A stretch of DNA of 42,997 nucleotides from a virus (lineage: Duplodnaviria > Heunggongvirae > Uroviricota > Caudoviricetes), in the IMG/VR virus record IMGVR_UViG_2563366800_000007. One strand, given 5' to 3'. The position numbers were made by a program, and so were the translations under genes. Shown here piece after piece: positions 7,049-42,997 of the stretch. Numbering within the stretch: position 1 is the first letter of the stretch; each line of letters begins with the position of its first letter. The notes beneath the pieces are model-generated. The model was not told where the DNA came from. It saw nothing but the letters and a program-made list of their open reading frames with translations, and made no database searches.

Positions 7049-7474
7049 TTATTTTCTAGATGATGTTGGGGACCAAGGTAACGTTATAGTATCTAACACT
7101 GTGTTTTTGAACATATTTTCAAAAACTGTTTTTGTACATACATATACATAATTTTCAAAAAACCAAGCATTTTCATTATAAAAATCCTCAGTTACTTCTT
7201 CATCGAGGTCACACTCAAATGTTAGTGTCAAGGTAGCCTCTGCCTTGAACAATACATCCTCACCATCATCAAAATCTTTTTTATCGCGAGGGAAACCAGT
7301 TATCGATGGCTTAACTTCAATAAAGAGCCAATTTCCATCTTCATCTTTTTGAGGAACAACGTGATGCTCAGAAAATTTTAAGCTATATTTTCCGCCTTCA
7401 GAATTATCACTGTCGTCGATAAAAAGGGAAGAACCCTCGAGATCAAATCCCTTAAAGCGAATTTTATCAAGCAT
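7049..7474 (-). CDS. Acidic SecB-like chaperone candidate (third gene of the hicAB operon)
   Basis: 141-aa acidic product (MLDKIRFKGFDLEG...); its ATG overlaps the HicB stop (TGATG), implying translational coupling; N-terminal IRFKGFDLE and C-terminal FENYVYVCTKTVF...ITLP segments loosely match SecB (IQRIYTKDISFE, LFPYARECI...LNLAP); AT-rich by eye. The track ORF begins 36 nt upstream at 7510. Confidence 0.5.
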   Translation of the reverse strand: MLDKIRFKGFDLEGSSLFIDDSDNSEGGKYSLKFSEHHVVPQKDEDGNWLFIEVKPSITGFPRDKKDFDDGEDVLFKAEATLTLTFECDLDEEVTEDFYNENAWFFENYVYVCTKTVFENMFKNTVLDTITLPWSPTSSRK

Positions 7475-7932
7475 CAATGTGGCACTCCGTTGTCTACTGA
7501 AACTTCCCAATAGGTCTCTTCTGTACGTCTACGGGATGAGAAGAAAGTAACTTCTCTAACATCCCTCGGTTTTTCAAAGTGGTAGTGAACCTCTTTTTTC
7601 CCATTAACTGACTCACTGACAGCCTGTTTTACATAATCGTTTAAAGTCATATTCTTAGCTTTAGCAGCTAAATATGCTTTTTTATGCAGGGATTCACCTA
7701 TCCGGATGTTAAACGAACCACTCATTGTCTTATCTGGAGATTTTCCTATCTCTTCACAAGTGGAGAGGTAATCGTCCACGGCCTCCTCAAAGGCTGCACG
7801 GAGTTCTGCAACCGTTGCACCCTCATAAGTGACGAGATCATTTATACATTCGAGTTTTCCATGCATCACCCCATCTTCAAATGAAATGCTGGAGCTACCA
7901 TAGTAACCTTTGTATTTCATCAAGTTATTCAT
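7474..7932 (-). CDS. hicB: HicB-family antitoxin (RNase H-like fold plus ribbon-helix-helix) with an about 45-aa aromatic-rich C-terminal extension
   Basis: MKYKGYYGS...HGKL...TYEGATVAELRAAFEEAVDDYL is a typical HicB N-domain; SGSFNIRIGESLHKKAYLAAKAKNMTLNDYVKQAV looks like an RHH DNA-binding motif; an extra tail ...KKEVHYHFEKPRDVREVTFFSSRRRTEETYWEVSVDNGVPH follows. Start 7932 or 7920 (track ORF starts at 7947). Confidence 0.8.
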   Translation of the reverse strand: MNNLMKYKGYYGSSSISFEDGVMHGKLECINDLVTYEGATVAELRAAFEEAVDDYLSTCEEIGKSPDKTMSGSFNIRIGESLHKKAYLAAKAKNMTLNDYVKQAVSESVNGKKEVHYHFEKPRDVREVTFFSSRRRTEETYWEVSVDNGVPH

Positions 7933-8179
7933 GATCATCAATCTCATCTAACAGCTGTTTAACTTCTTCCAAGACGTACCTTTTGAGGGTGTTTTCAGGA
8001 TGAGGCTCATGAAAAATGACCAATCTATCAACACGTTGGTTGTAAAATTTACGGCCAGAACCTCGTTTAGCATTCAAAAGCTTGAAGCCATACTGGTTCA
8101 TGAGAGTAACGAACTCATCCCAAGTAAAATTTTTGGGTAAGCCGTCTAACTTTGACTTTAGCTTTTCCTTTCTTCCCAC
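7925..8179 (-). CDS. hicA: HicA-family toxin (putative mRNA interferase)
   Basis: 84-aa ORF (GTG start) MGRKEKLKSKLDGLPKNFTWDEFVTLMNQYGF...RGSGRKF...IFHEPHP matches the HicA pattern (KxFTWDE...GSH/GSxR...H); 3-prime end overlaps the hicB start. Confidence 0.8.
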   Translation of the reverse strand: MGRKEKLKSKLDGLPKNFTWDEFVTLMNQYGFKLLNAKRGSGRKFYNQRVDRLVIFHEPHPENTLKRYVLEEVKQLLDEIDDHE

Positions 8180-14915: not shown

Positions 14916-15049
14916 CATTTGAATCCTGTTTTTCCGATCACCTCCGCGTTCGCTGGCAGCGGCTTCGCTTATACCACTTTCCCGGCTCTGTGCTAACGGA
15001 CTACCGGATACTGAAGAACTACATCAAAACCATAGGCGGTGCAGTATGA
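14912..15049 (+). CDS. YlcG-like 45-aa protein
   Basis: Hand-translated [45 protein letters not shown]; ATGA overlap with the rusA stop and with the next start; same position as ylcG between rusA and Q in DLP12. Confidence 0.5.
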
Positions 15050-15735
15050 ATACTCAATTTCTCGAATACGTGCGCCAGCAGTTGATGGTGGCCACCGCCG
15101 ATTTAAGTGGTGCGACGAAAGGGCAGTTGATGGCGTGGCTTGAAAACGCGCAGTTCGATACGGGAACGTTTAAACGTAAAAAGCCTCGAGTGCTGGATGA
15201 AGTGACCGGGGAAATGATTACGCTGGATAACCCGCCAATACCGGGCAAGCAGTCGCATGCCAAGGGTTCGCATATTCCCCTGGTGCAGCCGGTTGAATAC
15301 TCCAGCGCATCGTGGCGCCGCGCACTGATGTCACTCGAAGAACACCAGAAAGCGTGGCTGCTATGGAACTATAGCGAGAACGTGCGCTGGTGCTATCAGG
15401 TGGAAATCACTCAATGGGCGTGGGCAGAGTTCCGGGAGCAGCTCGGCGCGAAGAAGGTGGCCGGCAAAACGATGGAGCGCCTGAAGAAGCTTGTCTGGCT
15501 CGCGGCTCAGGACGTGAAAGCAGAGCTGGCAGGGCGTGAGATGTACGAATATCAGGCGCTGGCGTCGCTGGTTGGCGTAACGCCAAAAAACTGGTCAGAG
15601 ACCTTTACTGACCGCTGGGTTGAGATGCGCAGCATCTTCCTGCGACTGGATAGCGGGGCTTTATTGCAGGTTACGCGATCACGTTCACAACAAAAGGCGA
15701 CAAATTTAGACTCAAGTCTTGCAAAACTGGATTGA
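15046..15735 (+). CDS. Putative late antiterminator (Q-like), assigned mainly by position
   Basis: 229-aa ORF at the end of the nin operon, followed by a terminator, a strong promoter and a second terminator-like hairpin (the PR-prime/tR-prime layout); sequence family not confirmed. Confidence 0.5.
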   Translation: MNTQFLEYVRQQLMVATADLSGATKGQLMAWLENAQFDTGTFKRKKPRVLDEVTGEMITLDNPPIPGKQSHAKGSHIPLVQPVEYSSASWRRALMSLEEHQKAWLLWNYSENVRWCYQVEITQWAWAEFREQLGAKKVAGKTMERLKKLVWLAAQDVKAELAGREMYEYQALASLVGVTPKNWSETFTDRWVEMRSIFLRLDSGALLQVTRSRSQQKATNLDSSLAKLD

Positions 15736-16306: not shown

Positions 16307-17206
16307 ATGCCAAATTGGATAGACGTGTTGGGCGAGATGGGTACTATTGCTCAACGTACACCAGCGGATGAGGTTCGCCACAAGTACTTACGAGAGTTGT
16401 CGAAGCATACAGGCCGAAACGTAATTTCATATTACTCAGGCTTCCTCCAGAAGGGGGGGCCTGGGTTGCAGCATTTAATACAAATGTCAGATGACGATAA
16501 AAATGGTCTTATGTCAGCCATTAACGGCTTAGACACGTCATTAGGGCTGGATATCTTGCTTCATACCCCAGGGGGAGATATTGCAGCATTGGAATCTATT
16601 GGTCATTATCTTCGTTCAAAATTTGGGACCAATATCCGGGCAATTGTTCCTATGATCTCAATGAGTTGTGGGACCATGTTGGCTTGCTGTGCCGAACAGA
16701 TTGTATTGGGCAAACAGTCAAATTTGGGGCCAATTGATCCGCAGCTTGGTGGTTTATCATCTCATGCGATCATAGAAGAGTATGAGCGAGCTAAGAAAGA
16801 GATTTCTGAAAATGCTGCAGCGATCCAATGGTGGCAATTTACTCTTCAAAAGCTAAACCCGACTCTCATTGGTGAATGTGAAAAGGCTATTGTTTGGGCT
16901 AATGAAATAGTACAAAAATGGCTGTGTACTGGTATGTTTGCAGGTCATGCTAACGCTCAAGATAAGGCTAAGCGAATTTGTGATGAGCTAAACAATCATC
17001 ATACAACCTATGCGCATGCTAGACATATTCATCTGGATAAAGCGCAAAGCATTGGTTTGAACATTATGGAGCTGGAGAGCGACCAAACTCTGCAGGATCT
17101 TGTGCTGACTATACATCATTGCTACATGCATTCATTTGGTACGAGTCCTGCTGCGAAAATTATTGAAAATCATAATGGCAGCACGATGATGTGGAATATT
17201 CGCTAA
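16307..17206 (+). CDS. ClpP/crotonase-fold serine peptidase (SDH / S49-like family)
   Basis: 299 aa; LLHTPGGDIAALES resembles the ClpP/SppA oxyanion-hole motif and IVPMISMSCGTMLACCAEQIVLG the nucleophile-serine block; AT-rich; starts 12 bp after the small ORF and ends at a strong terminator. Confidence 0.7.
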   Translation: MPNWIDVLGEMGTIAQRTPADEVRHKYLRELSKHTGRNVISYYSGFLQKGGPGLQHLIQMSDDDKNGLMSAINGLDTSLGLDILLHTPGGDIAALESIGHYLRSKFGTNIRAIVPMISMSCGTMLACCAEQIVLGKQSNLGPIDPQLGGLSSHAIIEEYERAKKEISENAAAIQWWQFTLQKLNPTLIGECEKAIVWANEIVQKWLCTGMFAGHANAQDKAKRICDELNNHHTTYAHARHIHLDKAQSIGLNIMELESDQTLQDLVLTIHHCYMHSFGTSPAAKIIENHNGSTMMWNIR

Positions 17207-17300: not shown

Positions 17301-17696
17301 ATGTCCGATCCTGTTTCTGGCACTACGGTCGCGGCTGGTGGCCTGATGGGAGCCAGCGTATTTGGTCTTGCAACCGGTATTGATTATGGCGTGGTATTTG
17401 GCGCATTCGCTGGTGCAGTATTTTATGTAGCGACAGCGGCAAATATCACACGAGTACGATTGATTGCTTACTTCATGACGTCATTCATTGTTGGCGTTCT
17501 TGCCGCTGGACTGGTGGGTTCAAAGCTGTCACAGGCTACCGGGTATAGTGACAGACCATTAGACGCACTTGGTGCTGTTGTAGTGGCGGCGATGACAATC
17601 AAAGTGCTCACATTTTTCAACAGTCAGGATTTGGGAAGCCTGTTCAGTATTCTTTCGCGATTCCGTGGAGGAGGGGCCAGCAATGGTAACAAGTGA
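17301..17696 (+). CDS. Holin-like membrane protein
   Basis: 131 aa with several hydrophobic helices (GLMGASVFGLATGIDYGVVFGAFAGAVFYVA..., FIVGVLAAGLVG...); first gene of the lysis cassette with an AGAGGGGG ribosome-binding site. Confidence 0.6.
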   Translation: MSDPVSGTTVAAGGLMGASVFGLATGIDYGVVFGAFAGAVFYVATAANITRVRLIAYFMTSFIVGVLAAGLVGSKLSQATGYSDRPLDALGAVVVAAMTIKVLTFFNSQDLGSLFSILSRFRGGGASNGNK

Positions 17697-17964
17697 TCCG
17701 TCAGCGATGGTGAATGCAGGTATTTGTGCGGTCATCGTCCTTGTCCTGATGTTCTACCAGCGTGAAGGGGCAAGACATCGCCCCGCTATATCATTGCTGG
17801 CGTACTTCGTTGTGCTGGTTTATGCCAGCGTTCCATTCCGATATCTGTTCGGCCTCTACCAGGAGTCACACTGGATGGTGGTCATCGTAAACCTTCTTAT
17901 TTGCGCTGCCGTGTTATGGGCTCGTGGGAATGTGGCGCGTCTCGTTGATACGCTGAGGCATTAA
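17683..17964 (+). CDS. Second holin-like or antiholin membrane protein
   Basis: 93-aa product from the ATG at 17683 (GGAGGAGG upstream) with two or three hydrophobic helices; overlaps the preceding stop. Track ORF begins at 17665. Confidence 0.5.
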   Translation: MVTSDPSAMVNAGICAVIVLVLMFYQREGARHRPAISLLAYFVVLVYASVPFRYLFGLYQESHWMVVIVNLLICAAVLWARGNVARLVDTLRH

Positions 17965-18581
17965 TGAACCAATCACAATTTCAACAGGCGGCTGGTGTAA
18001 GCGCCGGGTTAGCTACGCGCTGGTTTCCGCACATTGACGCGGCAATGAAAGAGTTCGGCATTGTTAAGCCTGAAGACCAGGCAATGTTTATTGCTCAGTC
18101 AGGACATGAATCAGCGGGATTCTCTGCGCTGGTGGAGAGCTTCAACTACACCCCAGCCGCTCTGCTGACCACATTTGGACGCCGCATTACGAACTATCAG
18201 GCATATATGCTTGGGCGTGACAAAGAAAAAGGGCACGTAGCCAATCAGCCAGCCATTGCAAATCTGGTGTACAGCAATCGCCTCGGTAACAAAGCATCAG
18301 GCGATGGGTGGAAATATCGTGGCCGTGGGCTGATTCAGATTACCGGTCTTGATAATTACCGCCGCTGCGGAACGGGATTAAAACTGGATTTAGTCAGTAA
18401 TCCTGAGTTGCTGGAAAAGGATATCAACGCGGCACGTTCAGCTGCATGGTTCTACGCCACCAGCGGATGCCTGAGCTATTCCGGCGATCTGGTTCGCATC
18501 ACCCAGATCATCAATGGTGGACAGAACGGCATTAACGACCGTCGTGCACGCTACGCCAAAGCAAAAGCCGCACTGGTATGA
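17964..18581 (+). CDS. Endolysin, glycoside hydrolase family 19 (chitinase-like)
   Basis: FIAQSGHESAGF ... YRGRGLIQITGLDNY blocks are typical of GH19 phage endolysins; ATGA overlap with the upstream gene. Confidence 0.8.
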   Translation: MNQSQFQQAAGVSAGLATRWFPHIDAAMKEFGIVKPEDQAMFIAQSGHESAGFSALVESFNYTPAALLTTFGRRITNYQAYMLGRDKEKGHVANQPAIANLVYSNRLGNKASGDGWKYRGRGLIQITGLDNYRRCGTGLKLDLVSNPELLEKDINAARSAAWFYATSGCLSYSGDLVRITQIINGGQNGINDRRARYAKAKAALV

Positions 18582-18588
18582 GGTCGCT

Positions 18589-18864
18589 ATGGGACTTGAA
18601 ATGATTATCGGCCTGGCTGTTGCTGTGCTGGCTGCAATTGCAGGTGCTTTTGGTCTGGGTAAATCGCGCGGTACTAACATCGCTGAGACAAAAGCGGACC
18701 AGCAACGCACTGAAGAACGTGCAACAGCTACTGAAGCTGTTGCTGAACGCCGGGTAGAAACAACGAAAGAGGCCAGCAATGTACAGCAGAGTGTTAACCA
18801 TATGCTTGGCGACGATGTTGATCGTGAGCTGCGCAACAACTGGACCCGCCCCGGTAGTCGTTGA
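18589..18864 (+). CDS. i-spanin (Rz-like)
   Basis: N-terminal transmembrane helix (MGLEMIIGLAVAVLAAIAGAFGL) followed by a charged periplasmic region; directly after the endolysin. Start 18589 (track ORF begins at 18514). Confidence 0.65.
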   Translation: MGLEMIIGLAVAVLAAIAGAFGLGKSRGTNIAETKADQQRTEERATATEAVAERRVETTKEASNVQQSVNHMLGDDVDRELRNNWTRPGSR

Positions 18865-19030
18865 TACCGCCTGTGATTGGGTAAAGCCCATCTATCTTAC
18901 TGACCACGATATTGCCGTTATGGATAAGCAGACGAAGCGCGACATCCTAGTGCATAACAAAGCATGGAAGGTGAACTGTAATCCCAAAAAGGTAAAGACG
19001 AGCACTCTAAAATTTGTGGACAAGCCATGA
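18779..19030 (+). CDS. o-spanin (Rz1-like) lipoprotein, overlapping the i-spanin gene in another frame
   Basis: Signal peptide with a lipobox-like LIVSC followed by a Pro-rich stretch; the gene starts inside the i-spanin gene, the classic nested arrangement. Confidence 0.65.
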   Translation: MYSRVLTICLATMLIVSCATTGPAPVVVDTACDWVKPIYLTDHDIAVMDKQTKRDILVHNKAWKVNCNPKKVKTSTLKFVDKP

Positions 19031-19842: not shown

Positions 19843-19864
19843 ACCGCCTCCGGGCGGTTTTTTT
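19843..19864 (+). terminator. Rho-independent terminator
   Basis: Stem accgcc / ggcggt with a tccg loop, followed by TTTTTTT. Confidence 0.7.
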
Positions 19865-19886
19865 ATGTCAGTACACTGGAGCGTTT

Positions 19887-20525
19887 ATGGCAACACTCAA
19901 AGACCTTTCTCAGCAATTAAAGAAGGTACAAAAGCAGGTGCCATATGCTACAGCACTAGCTATGACAAAAGTTGTTCGTCAAATAGAAACGGCACAGAAA
20001 ACAGCGTTCGAACGACATCTGGAGAGCCCGACACCGTTTACCGTTAAATCAGTTGGTTCGGTGGCGGCAAGGAAGAACAACCTGACTGCAAAGGTTTTTG
20101 TCCGCGATACCGCGGCTGGTTATCTGGAACCATTCGAGTTAGGTGGAGAGCATAAGCTCAATAGCCAAGCGCTATTGAACCCCAAGAACGTCAAGCTAAA
20201 CAAATACGGCAACATGCCGCGTAATAAGCTCTCACAGCTTAAAGCAAAGGAAAATGTATTCGTAGGTGAGGTTGATGGCGTTAACGCTGTCTGGCAGCGT
20301 AAGAAGCCGATGAAAGCTAAGAAGCGACGGGCCAAACGTTCCGCTAACGGGACGCGAAGACCGAAACGCAAACAGCGTTCTCCAAAGCTTTTGATCCGGT
20401 TTGGTGATGCGCTACCTGTGACTCCAGTGCTGGGGTATATGGATAGGGCCCGTACCATGGCGAACGCACTGCTACCGTCTGCTTTAAATCAGGCGATAGC
20501 AGAAGCCATCAGGACGGCAAAATAA
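19887..20525 (+). CDS. Hypothetical 212-aa protein with a Lys/Arg-rich segment
   Basis: Internal ATG at 19887 with GGAG upstream; contains KKPMKAKKRRAKRSANGTRRPKRKQRSPK, suggesting nucleic-acid binding; no family recognised. Track ORF begins at 19767. Confidence 0.45.
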   Translation: MATLKDLSQQLKKVQKQVPYATALAMTKVVRQIETAQKTAFERHLESPTPFTVKSVGSVAARKNNLTAKVFVRDTAAGYLEPFELGGEHKLNSQALLNPKNVKLNKYGNMPRNKLSQLKAKENVFVGEVDGVNAVWQRKKPMKAKKRRAKRSANGTRRPKRKQRSPKLLIRFGDALPVTPVLGYMDRARTMANALLPSALNQAIAEAIRTAK

Positions 20526-20535
20526 AAGCAGTAAC

Positions 20536-21039
20536 TTATAAGTTAATTTCGCAAGCTTTTATGAAGCTGTTTACTGCAGTTGTCGATCCAGAAACATTGG
20601 CTGACATGGAATGCTGGTTTCCGCCATCCTTTGTTTGCACACCAACTAACACTTTGGATTTCGCCCCCTGAAGCTGCTTAAGCACTGTTTTTAGTTGGTC
20701 CGCGTCATCCGATTGAATCTGGAGGCTCTGAACATTACGTCTTGAAAGGGTAGCATCGAGCTTCACTGCGGTATTCCCGTCGACCTTCATTATCAGGTCC
20801 ATTGGTACCTCTGATAGTGATTCGGTGCTTTTATCCATTTCAACGTATGCCGCCGATAGCTTTTCTTTAGTGCAGTCAAACACAATGGCGCCATTGTCGG
20901 ATGAAACCTCGCCAAGCATCATTGCTTTCTTACCACCAGAGAAAAGGTCATCTTCAGTATTAGTTACCCACTGGGCATGAGCAATTGGTGATGCCAGCAC
21001 TGCGGCTACGAAAGTTATTTTGATTATATTGTTACCCAT
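20536..21039 (-). CDS. Secreted or periplasmic protein of unknown function
   Basis: ATG at 21039 preceded by AAGGAGAA; N-terminal signal peptide MGNNIIKITFVAAVLASPIAHA then QW; two Cys in the mature part; transcribed opposite to the late genes, next to cos. Confidence 0.5.
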   Translation of the reverse strand: MGNNIIKITFVAAVLASPIAHAQWVTNTEDDLFSGGKKAMMLGEVSSDNGAIVFDCTKEKLSAAYVEMDKSTESLSEVPMDLIMKVDGNTAVKLDATLSRRNVQSLQIQSDDADQLKTVLKQLQGAKSKVLVGVQTKDGGNQHSMSANVSGSTTAVNSFIKACEINL

Positions 21040-21130
21040 TACATTCTCCTTGTATTGAATAGGAATAATCATAGTCGGAGCGAATGGTCGAAGCCAATAA
21101 AAAAATGGGTCCTTCCTGAGACTTTTGTAA

Positions 21131-21160
21131 GGTACGGGCATTGCGCGCCGCGGTGTTTTC
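21131..21160. other. cosN-like GC-rich segment (candidate cohesive-end site)
   Basis: tacgggcattgcgcgccgcggtgttttcc resembles the lambda cos region (tacggggcggcgacctcgcgggttttcgc) in layout; about 170 bp upstream of the terminase small-subunit gene. Confidence 0.4.
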
Positions 21161-21183: not shown

Positions 21184-21330
21184 GTCCCATGTCCCACCTC
21201 TGGCGATCATTACGGACACCTCGCCAGCTCTGGCTATTCCAGTTTATTCCAGTGGGACATTCTGGTGGGACATGGCAAAAATGTCCCAGGCGAATGTCCC
21301 ACCCCAGAAAATGTCCCAGGTGATGTCCCA
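21184..21330. repeat. Eight copies of GTCCCA / TGGGAC (candidate terminase small-subunit binding sites, cosB-like)
   Basis: Hexamers at about 21184, 21191, 21283, 21296, 21313, 21325 (forward) and 21253, 21266 (reverse), mostly as ATGTCCCA with 12 to 17-bp spacing, ending at the terS start codon. Confidence 0.5.
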
Positions 21331-21899
21331 TGACCACGATGAACCAGAGTCAGTACGCACAACATTCAGGTGTGGATCGCAAAACAATTGGTCGGTGGAT
21401 TAAAGCCGGGCGCTTCATTGTGATGGACGGAGACCTGATTGACGTAGAGGCCAGCGATGCGGCATTGAAGAAAAACCGCGATGGCAAAGACCCGCGCGCC
21501 TCGAACGCGAAGAAAAAGAAAACTCCCGTCGTTAGCGATAACGATGATGACGGTGATGAAATCAATAAAACTGTCCGCCAGATAATGCTCACTGAAGGGG
21601 CAGATCTTTCGAGAGAGGAAGCGGGACGTATCCGCGAGAATTACATGGCCCTGCAGGCAAAGCTGCAGTATGAAAAAGACAGCGGCCAGCTTATTGAGCT
21701 GACAGCAGCCGAGGAGGTTTTATTCAACGCCTTTCGCCAACAGCGTGATGCCTGGCTTAACTGGCCGTCCAGGGTGGCGCCGCTAATGGCTGCTGATCTG
21801 GATGTACCGGCGGACAGGATGACAGAGGTGCTGATTGAACATGTCCACAAACACATCTCAGTCCTCGGAGAGCCAGAGTTTAACCCGGCAGAAGATTGA
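21330..21899 (+). CDS. Terminase small subunit (lambda Nu1-like)
   Basis: N-terminal HTH (QYAQHSGVDRKTIGRWIKAG) as in Nu1; immediately upstream of and overlapping the large-subunit gene; preceded by the repeat array. Confidence 0.75.
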   Translation: MTTMNQSQYAQHSGVDRKTIGRWIKAGRFIVMDGDLIDVEASDAALKKNRDGKDPRASNAKKKKTPVVSDNDDDGDEINKTVRQIMLTEGADLSREEAGRIRENYMALQAKLQYEKDSGQLIELTAAEEVLFNAFRQQRDAWLNWPSRVAPLMAADLDVPADRMTEVLIEHVHKHISVLGEPEFNPAED

Positions 21900-32522: not shown

Positions 32523-32671
32523 CAACCTGGCAGGAAATGGCCGCTGACGTCACCTTCTATTTCCGCTGGTCTGAGGACAGGGCGTGGGGAATGACCCGCG
32601 CCCGGCTGAAATGGTGGGTGGCGCAGGCATCCCGGATAAACAAGCTTAGGAAACCTGAAGACGATGAGTAA
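32244..32671 (+). CDS. Tail assembly chaperone, predicted -1 frameshift extended product
   Basis: Slippery T TTT TTG at 32501..32507 in the zero frame; the -1 frame reads through to a TAA at 32669..32671 (FFDLEALTTWQEMAADVTFYFRWSEDRAWGMTRARLKWWVAQASRINKLRKPEDDE), overlapping the tape-measure start. Confidence 0.5.
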
Positions 32672-34592
32672 TTCTTTTGATTTTGAGCTGGTGGCCAGCG
32701 ACCAGGTTAGCGAGGCTATAGACCGCATTAATGAGGCTGTCCGTGACCTGGAGCCGAAGCTAGATAAAACTAAAGAAGGGCTCAAGTTAGGCGGTCAGGA
32801 AACAGCCGACGGACTGAGCGGTTTTATTTCTCGCCTCGAGAATATGTCGAAGAGCGCGCGGGATAACGTGCAGTTTATTGGCGACATGGTTCCCCCTCTG
32901 AAAATGGTGGGGGAGCTCACGGGGAAGATGGGGGCGCTGGGGTTAGCCGGTGCTGCCGGCTACGGACTGAAACAGGTCGCTTATGGATTTCGGGAGGCAT
33001 CCCGTCAGGCCTATAATCTTGATGTCTCGGCAAAAAATGCGGGAATGCGCGTTGACGATTTTACCCGACTTTCCGGGGCAATGCGTATTCTTGGGGCAGA
33101 CAGCGAGAGCGCTAATGCATCAATAGAAGGTATTTTCAAAGCATTCAATGAGGCTGCCAGTGGTAAAAACGAGGGGGTTATGGCAGCGATGGCGCAAATT
33201 GGTGCTCAAATCCAAAAAAACAGCGATGGTTCAGTAAATACCCTTAAAACACTGGAGTCTATCGCAAAAATTTTTCCAACCTTGCGACCTGAACAGCAGA
33301 AGTCCGCCGCTGATGCACTTGGGCTGACGCCCGAATTGCTGGCGCTAATGCGTGACGGTGAGCGCATGAAAAAGCTGCTGGCGAAATCGGATGAATTTGG
33401 TCTGACTGTGGATCCGGCACTAAATCAGCAATTGAGTGAAGTGAACGGCACTATGAATGAGCTCAGCGCATCCTGGGATGGTCTGTGGCAACGTTCAAAA
33501 AACAAGGCACTTAAGACCATTCTTTCGGATGGTTCAGTCAAAGACGGCCTTGAAGGTGTTACCGATCTGTTCACTAATGGTGATTTTACTGGGCTGTCTC
33601 ATGCTCTCGGTTTTATCAACAGCAATGATGCTGAGAAACTACGGCGCATTCAGAACGATAAGGAACTTTATAACAGCTTACCCCGCAGTGAACGTGGGCA
33701 GGTTGACGCGGGTTTCATGACTGATGCTGTAAGAAAGCGGTACGATGCGAATTACCGCGCGACCGATTCTGCGATTCAATTGCAGAATGACTTATCCGCT
33801 ATCAGCCAGCCACAATCCAACGTTGCACGCGGCAATGTTCCTTACGGGGAAACAAGGAATAACGCAATTGGCTTCAGAAATAATAATCCCGGTAATTTGA
33901 GAGTTGCAGCAAACGCAACGGGTAAAAATGGCGGATTTTCTACCTTTGCGAATGATGCCGACGGAAGAACTGCAATGGCGAGACAGCTGATGTTGTATGG
34001 TGACAGGGGGAATAATACTCTGGATGGGATTATTCATACCTATGCTCCGCAATCAGAGAATAATACTCGTGCATATATTGACTCCGTCTCAAAAGCCACT
34101 GGATATGGAGCCAAAGAGCAAGTAAATCTGCACGATCCGGAAACATTAAAAACGATAATGGCAGCCATGATTAAACATGAGAATGGCGCACAACCTTATA
34201 CTGAGGAACAACTGCTAAACGCCATCCAGACCGCCATTACTGATGATCGGTGGTCAGGGAAGAGAAATCCGGATGTGCTGGCCCAGCAGCGGTATGACAT
34301 TATCTCAGGTTCGCAAACTGGAAATCGTGACTCCAGCACTCTTAGTAACCCGAGTGATGAAACTGATATTCTCTCAGGCTCGCAGAACAGAAATCGGGAA
34401 TCCATCATTCTGAGTGATACGGGTAAGAAAAGTGATGAAAGTGTACTCGGCGACAATCTGGCTAAGTCTCTTAAAGAGGCAATGTCAGAACAACCACTTA
34501 AGCTCGAAATCACAATGGTTAATGATAAGGGTGAGCGAAAAACCTATAATGCGGAAAATAATGGCAGAATAACAACGGCCATGAATTACTGA
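32664..34592 (+). CDS. Tail tape measure protein
   Basis: 642 aa with an alpha-helical, Ala/Gly-rich N-terminal two thirds; downstream of the frameshift chaperone; the C-terminal third looks like a separate conserved domain (GFRNNNPGNLRV...). Confidence 0.75.
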   Translation: MSNSFDFELVASDQVSEAIDRINEAVRDLEPKLDKTKEGLKLGGQETADGLSGFISRLENMSKSARDNVQFIGDMVPPLKMVGELTGKMGALGLAGAAGYGLKQVAYGFREASRQAYNLDVSAKNAGMRVDDFTRLSGAMRILGADSESANASIEGIFKAFNEAASGKNEGVMAAMAQIGAQIQKNSDGSVNTLKTLESIAKIFPTLRPEQQKSAADALGLTPELLALMRDGERMKKLLAKSDEFGLTVDPALNQQLSEVNGTMNELSASWDGLWQRSKNKALKTILSDGSVKDGLEGVTDLFTNGDFTGLSHALGFINSNDAEKLRRIQNDKELYNSLPRSERGQVDAGFMTDAVRKRYDANYRATDSAIQLQNDLSAISQPQSNVARGNVPYGETRNNAIGFRNNNPGNLRVAANATGKNGGFSTFANDADGRTAMARQLMLYGDRGNNTLDGIIHTYAPQSENNTRAYIDSVSKATGYGAKEQVNLHDPETLKTIMAAMIKHENGAQPYTEEQLLNAIQTAITDDRWSGKRNPDVLAQQRYDIISGSQTGNRDSSTLSNPSDETDILSGSQNRNRESIILSDTGKKSDESVLGDNLAKSLKEAMSEQPLKLEITMVNDKGERKTYNAENNGRITTAMNY

Positions 34593-40865: not shown

Positions 40866-41306
40866 ATGCAGAAATATATTTTCAGTGCCGATAAAAATGC
40901 GTTTTTCCCTGTGGAGCTTAAAATCGCTTATCAGGAATCCGGCGAATGGCCCGATGATGGAATCGAAATTGACGACACTGTTGCTGCCGAATTTATGAAG
41001 GAAGCACCAGAAGGAAAATACAGAGGTGTCATCGACGGAATGCCTGCATGGATTGATATTCCACCGCCAACTCATGAGGAACAAATTGCCGCAGCCGAAC
41101 TGAAAAAGCAGCAATTGATTAATCAGGTCAACGAATACATAAACAGTAAGCAATGGCCTGGTAAAGCGGCGATTGGTCGCCTGAAAGGTGAGGAACTGGT
41201 GCAATATAATTTGTGGCTGGATTATCTGGACGCACTGGAACTGGTCGATACTTCCGGTGCGCCAGATATTGAATGGCCTACGCCTCCGGCAGTTCAGGCC
41301 AGATGA
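40866..41306 (+). CDS. Tail fibre assembly protein (for the current fibre variant)
   Basis: 146-aa ORF immediately after the fibre gene; the C-terminal LVDTSGAPDIEWPTPP mirrors the C-terminus of the opposite-strand paralog (DTSTAPDVIWPELP). Confidence 0.7.
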   Translation: MQKYIFSADKNAFFPVELKIAYQESGEWPDDGIEIDDTVAAEFMKEAPEGKYRGVIDGMPAWIDIPPPTHEEQIAAAELKKQQLINQVNEYINSKQWPGKAAIGRLKGEELVQYNLWLDYLDALELVDTSGAPDIEWPTPPAVQAR

Positions 41307-41880
41307 CATCAGGCGCGGTGCTGGTATCTGTTGCCTCCACCGCGTCAATGTAATCCAGCACAGCGTTAAGTCGGGTGGTTTCTGCCTGCGTCAGCTTCCG
41401 CCCGGCCCGTAATTTCATCTGAATCAGACTGATGGAAGCCATTGCAGCATCAATCAGCGACTGGCGCTTTGCTTCTGCCGCGTCTAGTGCGGCGCTATGC
41501 TGTGCCTCGGTATCCGTCACCCATTTCTCACCATCCCATTTATCGAATGGCGTTAACGGGGCGATAGTGGTTGTATTTTCAGGGTAATCACCCAGAGCTG
41601 TGATTTCTTTCGATTCTCCTGTTTCGGTGCTATAGATGATTTCACCGCGATGGTCTGGTACATATTCCCATGAGTTAAAATCTGCAGAACGGCAGATTGT
41701 ATAACCAGCTTTATGTGTAACTGGTGCATCTAAACAAGAACATGCCGGGATACCGACGCCAACCGCAAGATATTCAGTTGATGTGGAAATATATTCCCGC
41801 GTTTCGCCATCATAGTTATGTACGATGATTTCCCCATCATTTAAAGCGTAACCGTCTTTTCCCAAAATAGCCTGTTCCAT
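41278..41880 (-). CDS. Alternative tail fibre assembly protein (inverted orientation)
   Basis: 200-aa minus-strand ORF converging on the plus-strand assembly gene; shared C-terminal motif. Confidence 0.7.
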   Translation of the reverse strand: MEQAILGKDGYALNDGEIIVHNYDGETREYISTSTEYLAVGVGIPACSCLDAPVTHKAGYTICRSADFNSWEYVPDHRGEIIYSTETGESKEITALGDYPENTTTIAPLTPFDKWDGEKWVTDTEAQHSAALDAAEAKRQSLIDAAMASISLIQMKLRAGRKLTQAETTRLNAVLDYIDAVEATDTSTAPDVIWPELPEA

Positions 41881-42396
41881 TTATGCAGCCCTCACAATGT
41901 AGTTAAATGCAATGTTTCGCGGGCTACCATCACCGGCGCCGGAACTGACATGATTTGTTCTATCCATTCGTTTACTGTCATTTGTTGTTCCACTCCCATC
42001 CTTCCACGAATACAATAACCCGCCATCGCCAATGCTCAACTGCACCGCAAATACGGATGAAACGGATGAATAAACATCACTAGCCATGAGTGGGTTCCCG
42101 GTCCATCCATGCATTTCATGGTTATGTTCAAGGATAGATGCCGCCTGACTTGAAAGTAGCAGTCTCGCGGAATCAACACCTCGCCCATCATCCCACCCGC
42201 GAATAAACTCACCGCGCAAATCCGGTAATTTTAACTTTGGGTAAGCCTTTGCCAGTTTTGGGTACTCTTCGGCAGAAAAAGGTGCACCGTTGCATTTCAG
42301 CCAGCCTGTTGGTGGTGTGGCTGAAGGCCACGGAACAGGCACACCAACGGGTAACGCTGAGCCTTCTCCCAAACCAACCTTTTTTATAACCATCAA
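41881..42396 (-). CDS. Alternative tail-fibre C-terminal variable segment (expressed after inversion)
   Basis: Minus-strand ORF whose codons 7 to 11 (VGLGE) share the 14-bp crossover sequence with the plus-strand fibre gene, in frame; collar-type C-terminal domain (PLGEGSALPVG ... LPDLRGEFIRGW ... NIAFNYIVRA). Confidence 0.65.
   Translation of the reverse strand: MMVIKKVGLGEGSALPVGVPVPWPSATPPTGWLKCNGAPFSAEEYPKLAKAYPKLKLPDLRGEFIRGWDDGRGVDSARLLLSSQAASILEHNHEMHGWTGNPLMASDVYSSVSSVFAVQLSIGDGGLLYSWKDGSGTTNDSKRMDRTNHVSSGAGDGSPRNIAFNYIVRAA
42364..42389. other. gix/hix-like recombination site next to the invertase gene
   Basis: TTCTCCCAAACCAACCTTTTTTATAA; matches the recalled hix consensus (TTCTTGAAAACCAAGGTTTTTGATAA) at about 20 of 26 positions and is inverted relative to the first site. 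Confidence 0.6.
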
Positions 42397-42448
42397 AAAT
42401 CTGGTGATGCTTCGCCGTTTCTCCTGTTTTCATAACAGGAGAAATCCC

Positions 42449-42997
42449 ATGATTTACGGTTATGCCCGAGTATCAACAAACCACCAGGACACTGAATTGC
42501 AACTAACGGCGCTCAAGTCAGCGGGTTGTGAGAAAATTTTTGAAGAGCATGCCAGCGGGAGGAAATCGAATCGGCCGGTTCTAAAACGGCTCATCGCCAC
42601 TATGCAGCCGGGGGATGAACTGGTGGTCTGGAAGCTGGACAGGATAGGCCGCAACGTTCTGCATGCGCTGTTGATGTTCCAGCAGTTACAGGAAAAGGGT
42701 ATCAACTTCCGCAGTATTACCGATGGCGTGGATCTCAAAACAGCCAGCGGCCGCTATAACTTTCGTAACATCCTTTCCGCAGCACAATATGAATCTGATC
42801 TTAATAGCGAACGTACCTTAGCAGGGCTGGCCGTAGCCAGGGCAAAAGGGCGAGTTGGTGGTCGCAGGCCTAAGTTCACGGATGAGCAATGGCGGGAAAT
42901 GGGGGAGCGGATGGCAACCGGTGAATCACGACAAAGCGTATCAAAAACGTATGGAGTAGGGCTCTCAACTCTGTATAAAAAGTTTCCAGCTAGCTGA
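42449..42997 (+). CDS. Serine DNA invertase (Gin/Hin/Pin family)
   Basis: MIYGYARVSTNHQDTELQ...VVWKLDRIGR and a C-terminal HTH (GESRQSVSKTYGVGLSTLYK) are diagnostic; AGGAGA ribosome-binding site. Track ORF begins at 42290. Confidence 0.9.
   Translation: MIYGYARVSTNHQDTELQLTALKSAGCEKIFEEHASGRKSNRPVLKRLIATMQPGDELVVWKLDRIGRNVLHALLMFQQLQEKGINFRSITDGVDLKTASGRYNFRNILSAAQYESDLNSERTLAGLAVARAKGRVGGRRPKFTDEQWREMGERMATGESRQSVSKTYGVGLSTLYKKFPAS

Follow-up and report, generated by a model that had tools for sequence, protein, structure and literature searches.

Of the phage lambda genes bor and lom, only bor is located between the lysis genes and cos, whereas lom belongs to the tail region. Here we analysed a minus-strand gene for a predicted secreted protein next to cos in the IMG/VR virus record IMGVR_UViG_2563366800_000007, a stretch of 42,997 nt from a tailed phage (Caudoviricetes), which as a whole is called the window below. 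Like lambda bor, the gene is a separate unit with a single secreted product, and it has the same slot and orientation near the right cos end; however, Bor is a lipoprotein of about 97 aa with a lipobox cysteine, whereas the window protein has 167 aa and a predicted signal-peptidase-I site, and neither the protein nor 70 members of its family showed sequence similarity to Bor (no Pfam match). The preliminary description of the locus had placed the gene where lambda carries bor and lom; this is right for the slot and orientation of bor but not for lom, which sits in the tail region, and homology was found to neither. In phage HK97, the gp15 moron confers superinfection exclusion (PMC3594210). 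Our gene resembles gene 15 as a candidate moron with cellular homologues, and several members of its family adjoin the tape-measure gene as gene 15 does (PMC3594210); unlike gp15, a small YebO-family protein of the inner membrane, the window protein is predicted to be soluble and periplasmic, with another fold and no sequence relation. Comparison of related loci gives good support to a moron reading, in which the gene is a self-contained unit added to the right extremity of a lambda-like cos phage with a Mu-type contractile tail.

Reading frame, position and mobility of the gene

The gene starts with an ATG at 21039 and ends with a TAA at 20538-20536, giving a protein of 167 aa. A program-made open reading frame (ORF) extends upstream to a GTG at 21219 (227 aa), and this extension spans cosN. 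The 227-aa frame was rejected, as it crosses cosN without support from homologues. ATG 21039 was taken as the start because the N-termini of the homologues and the ribosome-binding site AAGGAGAA both favour it, and AAGGAG or AAGGGG is found at an equal distance from the ATG in all cos-adjacent alleles. The ORF coordinates and the 6 nt between AAGGAGAA and the ATG thus agree with the minus-strand gene and strong ribosome-binding site described before. Comparing the window gene with seven diverged alleles, we obtained a pN of 0.09-0.30 against a saturated pS of 0.68-0.91 per site, by which the gene is under clear purifying selection. This selection and the conserved homologues indicate that it is a real gene.

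To place the gene on the virion chromosome, the 12-nt 5' overhang of Serratia phage BZS1, determined by PhageTerm and PCR (PMC7556043), served as the reference. Since GCATTGCGCGCC in the window is identical to this overhang, the secreted-protein gene is the last gene at the virion right end, with its ATG 99 nt from the right cohesive end and its transcription directed inward. Its location next to cos, as claimed in the preliminary description, was therefore confirmed, and so was its transcription against the late operon: it is convergent with the plus-strand gene at 19881-20525 (encoding 214 aa) and antisense to the direction that leads from the lysis genes to the terminase genes.

The two closest isolated phages lack the gene. 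In phiNP, 57 nt lie between a homologue of the 214-aa gene and the element AAAAAAATGGGTCCTTCC, and cosN comes next; in BZS1, the slot is taken by a pair of unrelated small ORFs. The window, phiNP and BZS1 share AAAAAAATGGGTCCTTCC without any change, whereas the stretch between it and the 214-aa gene is wholly different, and the element is conserved in all cos-adjacent loci. In Enterobacter relatives of the window phage, the terminase is 98-100% identical, but the secreted-protein gene is only 84% and the 214-aa gene only 78% identical, which indicates a recombination boundary at cos. The base composition also differs, with a G+C content of 44.6% in the secreted-protein gene versus 49.0% in the 214-aa gene, 52.5% in terS, 55.4% in terL and 51% in the whole window.

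A promoter-like site, predicted to be a weak sigma-70 promoter of the gene's own, lies between cos and the ribosome-binding site. In alleles of 60-100% protein identity, the -10 hexamer reads TATGAT, TATCAT, TATATT or TAAGAT with the spacing kept. The block of T-run, -35, -10 and ribosome-binding site travels with the gene even to a non-phage chromosomal site in Leminorella grimontii, and copies in other contexts have promoter-like sites of their own, some of them behind a terminator hairpin.

At least five prophage positions were found for the gene family. In the first, the 214-aa gene, the convergent secreted-protein gene, cos, terS and terL follow each other; this order occurs in about 50 IMG/VR contigs and in genomes of Enterobacter, Salmonella, Klebsiella aerogenes, E. 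coli, Kluyvera and Citrobacter, with protein identities of 60-100%. The second is that of E. coli Mu-like prophages, where a copy of 63% identity follows com-mom as the final gene; a Mu-type right end (...CGTGCGCCGCCTCA) is 190 bp away, and the sequences outside this end vary between strains. In the third, the gene lies between tape-measure and DNA-circulation genes (Dryocola and two metagenomic contigs), and in the fourth just upstream of the tape-measure gene in two viral contigs, once beside a Doc-like toxin gene; a Devosia copy of 29% identity belongs here and is convergent with the tape-measure gene. In the fifth, the gene has spanin/endolysin genes on one side and a terminase from different PHROG families (phrog_83/phrog_9) on the other; these loci are without the 214-aa gene but retain, upstream of the family gene, a cos sequence that is closely similar. 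A Mu-type baseplate was present in every phage context in which tail genes were seen. Copies at non-phage chromosomal sites were found in Leminorella, in Kaistia and in a related metagenome contig.

The position directly after the lysis cassette, the occurrence elsewhere inside tail operons on the strand of the tail genes, and the constant company of a Mu-type baseplate would also suit a protein of the lytic cycle that is an accessory to lysis or, in the periplasm, helps with release or tail function. Against this, the window gene runs antisense to the late operon behind a conserved promoter-like site of its own, phiNP and BZS1 do without it, a Sec signal peptide cannot be reconciled with the assembly of virions in the cytoplasm, and the non-phage chromosomal copies exist. 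No similarity to holin, endolysin, spanin or structural families was detected with Pfam, PHROG, 70 family members and a BFVD structure search. Homology to a known structural or lysis protein, which the preliminary description had named as the result that would count against its proposal, was thus not found, and we regard a lytic-cycle role as quite improbable. The moron reading rests on the absence of the gene from phiNP and BZS1, the retained promoter-like site, the lower G+C content, the many prophage positions and the lack of lysis or structural homology; mobility between positions and the possession of cellular homologues are typical of morons (PMC3594210).

The predicted exported protein and its family

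The N-terminus was judged from hydrophobicity (Kyte-Doolittle, 11-residue window), the AxA motif and family conservation. The predicted signal peptide contains K7 as its sole lysine, a 13-residue hydrophobic core ITFVAAVLASPIA with Kyte-Doolittle values up to 2.5, and then A20-H21-A22, followed by Q23-W24. The AxA|xW pattern is family-wide, being found in 22 close and 70 distant members, so the classical Sec signal peptide with cleavage after AHA that had been proposed for this protein is well matched. No cysteine occurs in the first 55 residues or near the cleavage site, and no lipobox was found; because the first cysteine is residue 56, the protein is predicted to be a signal-peptidase-I substrate and not a lipoprotein. 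It has two cysteines, as described before, and C56 and C163 are, like W24, invariant in 70 diverse members.

The mature protein of 145 aa is hydrophilic (GRAVY -0.28, pI 4.95), and no second hydrophobic segment, membrane anchor or beta-barrel features were recognised in it. An AlphaFold2 model built from 22 homologues is confident (pLDDT 84.7, pTM 0.77) and compact, with nine strands and two helices; C56 is located at a strand end and C163 just past the C-terminal helix, which makes a C56-C163 disulfide plausible. The protein is therefore predicted to be exported through Sec and signal peptidase I as a soluble, acidic periplasmic protein of 15.5 kDa, and not a surface protein of the Bor/Lom type.

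We then searched for relatives of known function. Neither the protein nor the 104 members scanned (70 + 34) belonged to a Pfam, NCBIfam or PADLOC family; matches to DUF7767 and Rho_GDI (E 0.03-0.1) were rejected as noise, and a lone PADLOC match to a type I specificity subunit (E 0.007) was rejected as chance-level. The only result of PDB-sequence profile searches was a de novo designed protein (E 0.0015-0.05), also rejected as chance, and Foldseek against the PDB returned only TEAD domains with a TM of about 0.25, which were rejected as well. The fold search in BFVD gave only uncharacterised proteins of lytic T4-like phages. The best structural match was IalB (invasion-associated locus B; PF06776; PDB 3dtd). 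It shares only 13% identity with the window protein, without a family-model match: PF06776 found nothing in 70 members at E <= 0.01 or in 34 members at E <= 10, and the structure 3dtd was missed both by the PDB-sequence profile searches and by Foldseek. The resemblance to IalB is thus a fold-level lead from a predicted model, not a family assignment. Literature searches with the RefSeq accession of the protein, or with IalB and prophage, found nothing relevant.

A search of 5.8 billion proteins recovered 33 clusters of about 167 aa from Enterobacterales, all labelled hypothetical. A profile search of 1.84 billion representatives gave 272 proteins at E <= 0.001 and 127 at E <= 1e-10, the 272 being family representatives at 50% clustering. 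Nearly all of them have 160-175 aa and share the signal peptide, the W two residues past the cleavage site and the two cysteines. Four profile-search members (P0151, P0161, P0173 and P0175) are 331-655 aa long and consist of 2-3 tandem domain copies with a cysteine pair in each. The protein matched PHROG 19473 over its full length (E 1.6e-99), an entry that carries no function. By these profile comparisons, the family is known as a catalogue entry and is much wider than the PHROG 19473 cluster. No homologue was detected in the 50,697 phage records of INPHARED by tblastn and megablast.

As for its distribution, copies of at least 99% identity are present in 22 of 5426 complete E. coli genomes, and identical copies occur in E. 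coli, Enterobacter, Kluyvera and Citrobacter. Only five of 185,579 species-representative genomes matched search patterns taken from the close alignment. The family is also present in soil and plant bacteria, such as Devosia, Kaistia, Edaphovirga, Serratia plymuthica and Dryocola, and a role in animal virulence is disfavoured for this reason.

These data also bear on whether the gene acts as a surface lysogenic-conversion factor like lambda Bor or Lom, that is, a product exposed or anchored at the outer membrane that gives serum resistance or adhesion. The slot and orientation of lambda bor antisense to late transcription, the predicted secretion, and a best structural match that is described as invasion-associated all agree with such a function. 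However, the protein is without a lipobox cysteine, membrane span or beta-barrel, its mature part is hydrophilic, Pfam gave no match to Bor, Lom/Ail or IalB in the 70 + 34 members, and the family extends to the soil and plant bacteria listed above. We therefore consider a Bor/Lom-like surface factor highly improbable. The moron part of the earlier lysogenic-conversion proposal stands by comparison (absence in relatives, promoter-like site, G+C content and positions), whereas the suggested alteration of the cell surface is unlikely for a protein predicted to be soluble and acidic.

Surroundings of the gene in the window

The window is a complete temperate phage in prophage order. Its left part contains the integrase gene (1-1194), RecE/RecT-like genes, the repressor region, cII, O and P, followed by NinB, RusA, Q (15046-15735), an SDH-type protease gene and the two holin genes with endolysin and spanin genes (17301-19030). 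After the lysis genes come small unknown genes, the 214-aa gene, the secreted-protein gene on the opposite strand and cos. Past cos there are a Nu1-like terS, a gpA-like terL, lambda-like head genes and the genes of a Mu-type contractile tail, and the window ends with an invertible tail-fibre segment and a Gin-type invertase gene. The features around the secreted-protein gene are collected in Table 1.

Table 1. Secreted-protein gene, its predicted signals and the flanking features, in window positions
Feature	Position	Strand	Remarks
Convergent neighbour, 214 aa	19881..20525	+	phrog_1924 'minor tail protein'; stop 10 nt from the stop of the secreted-protein gene
Coding sequence of the secreted protein	20536..21039	-	167 aa; predicted mature protein 145 aa, 15.5 kDa, pI about 5; PHROG 19473 and a wider unannotated family
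Predicted signal peptide, residues 1-22, MGNNIIKITFVAAVLASPIAHA	20974..21039	-	Hydrophobicity and AxA motif; predicted signal-peptidase-I cleavage before Q23-W24
Ribosome-binding site AAGGAGAA	21044..21051	-	6 nt between GGAG and ATG; ideal spacing
Predicted -10 hexamer TATGAT	21068..21073	-	Kept across diverged alleles
Predicted -35 hexamer TTGGCT	21092..21097	-	18-nt spacer; adjoins the cos-flank element and its T-run
cos-flank element AAAAAAATGGGTCCTTCC	21099..21116	+	Right-end side of cosN; position of lambda cosQ; borders the inserted gene unit
cosN, 12-nt cohesive end GCATTGCGCGCC	21138..21149	+	Identical to the annotated cosL of Serratia phage BZS1
Seven GGGACAT/ATGTCCC heptamers	21189..21329		Between cosN and terS; all seven copies of the 43-kb window are here
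Small terminase subunit, Nu1-like	21330..21899	+	First left-arm gene; phrog_57, E 4.6e-36

The heptamer cluster is a probable cosB, with putative binding sites for the small terminase subunit. In phiNP and BZS1, GGTAACA repeats stand in place of the heptamers, and their TerS is only 33% identical to that of the window. This comparison suggests that the repeats and the specificity of TerS were exchanged together.

The 214-aa protein has no Pfam or NCBIfam model. Phages of Rhodobacter, Dinoroseobacter, Serratia and Citrobacter have its gene as the last one ahead of cos, and Acetobacter and Ralstonia phages carry it too; it is far from the tail operon, an odd conserved position for a supposed tail protein. 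A two-gene module of this gene and the secreted-protein gene was considered and rejected, as each of them is found alone and the 205-aa gene upstream in locus L019 is unrelated. Just upstream of the 214-aa gene, at 19843-19858 on the plus strand, there is a terminator-like hairpin (ACCGCC-TCCG-GGCGGT) with seven T. It lies within the expected late transcript and would need Q-mediated read-through.

Other candidate accessory genes were also seen in this part of the genome and in its relatives. Between the Q antiterminator gene and the holin genes, at 16307-17206 (+), a 299-aa SDH-type ClpP-like serine protease is encoded (PF01972, E 2e-21), which may be another accessory gene. In Enterobacter relatives (loci L007-L010, 9281-10415 and 13321-13602), Ivy-like (weak match), TolA-domain and Acb2/Tad1-like genes are located between the lysis genes and cos. 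Accessory genes with envelope-directed and anti-defence functions seem to have a general hot-spot in the stretch from the lysis genes to cos.

Further away, a Gin/Hin-type serine invertase gene (42290-42997) lies beside opposed cassettes of tail-fibre C-terminus and tail-fibre-assembly genes, and the region 40866-42997 looks like a host-range switch similar to the G segment of Mu. A HicB-like antitoxin gene (phrog_9151, E 5e-55) is present in the early-left region at 7474-7947 (-). In the tape-measure protein, encoded at 32664-34592 (+), residues of about 390-540 match PHROG families annotated as endolysin or tail-injection transglycosylase, and this similarity suggests a peptidoglycan-cutting domain, which would act in the periplasm.

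Possible function of the protein in the lysogen

From the predicted features of the gene and protein, we infer as a general picture that the lysogen probably expresses the product, which would be located in the periplasm and work as a binding protein, not as an enzyme. The unit would consist of the T-run, a weak sigma-70 promoter, a strong ribosome-binding site and one gene. In the lysogen, the gene's own promoter would drive production of the protein at a time when the late operon is off, and during lytic growth convergent late transcription would damp its expression. Exported via Sec and cleaved before QW, it would be oxidised to the C56-C163 disulfide and stay in the lysogen periplasm as a soluble, acidic 15.5-kDa protein, where it could benefit the lysogen as a non-enzymatic binding protein.

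For a specific role, the leading candidate, which we put forward tentatively and regard as possible at best, is that the protein blocks an envelope-crossing step of an incoming phage, that is, superinfection exclusion at the tape-measure or tail-tip stage. We propose it because family members repeatedly adjoin the tape-measure gene as the HK97 gp15 moron does, because the periplasm is where tape-measure and tail-tip proteins act, and because the presence of the family in soil and plant bacteria disfavours animal virulence. The similar folds among uncharacterised proteins of lytic T4-like phages were also counted for the exclusion idea. A bolder form of it, in which the family is an undescribed remote IalB-like periplasmic group, repeatedly captured by temperate phages with Mu-type tails as a soluble exclusion factor that binds the incoming tape-measure/tail-tip complex, is unlikely.

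Several observations weigh against the proposed expression and role. The promoter-like site TTGGCT-18-TATGAT matches in only 9 of 12 positions, and promoter-like sites in the region are no commoner than in shuffled sequence. After the gene in the window there is no intrinsic terminator: only 10 nt separate the convergent stops, and a nearby hairpin is without a U-run. In the Salmonella allele (L011, 8505-8545), a strong terminator hairpin with a U-tract (13-bp stem, then UUUAUUUUG) separates the convergent stops, and a stem of 11 bp was seen in the Mu-context allele; the window allele either lost the terminator seen in Salmonella or never had one. No similarity to a known exclusion, defence or virulence family was found with PHROG, Pfam and PADLOC. 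The adjacency to the tape-measure gene may reflect only common insertion hot-spots, and chromosomal homologues in housekeeping neighbourhoods (Kaistia and the metagenome contig) suggest a cellular role unrelated to phages.

The alternative to exclusion is general envelope fitness inherited from alphaproteobacterial cellular homologues. If the protein were merely a passenger of periplasmic housekeeping type, it would carry an IalB-like envelope role over from alphaproteobacterial chromosomes and have no phage-related function. The phage branch, however, is under purifying selection across many backbones and positions, and therefore a selected benefit is expected in Enterobacterales, which lack a chromosomal copy (the five matches among the 185,579 genomes). 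A pure passenger is thus improbable.

The results are useful for annotation and for choosing candidates for exclusion screens, and the gene would be seen by a phage biologist as a well-behaved and unsurprising moron. If superinfection exclusion by tape-measure or tail-tip binding is true, it would be a soluble mode of exclusion, distinct from that of membrane-embedded factors (gp15, SieA and Imm) or receptor-masking lipoproteins (Llp and Cor). If the protein is active in the lysogen periplasm, it would add an uncharacterised family to the accessory functions of prophages and offer a way to approach what IalB-like periplasmic proteins do.
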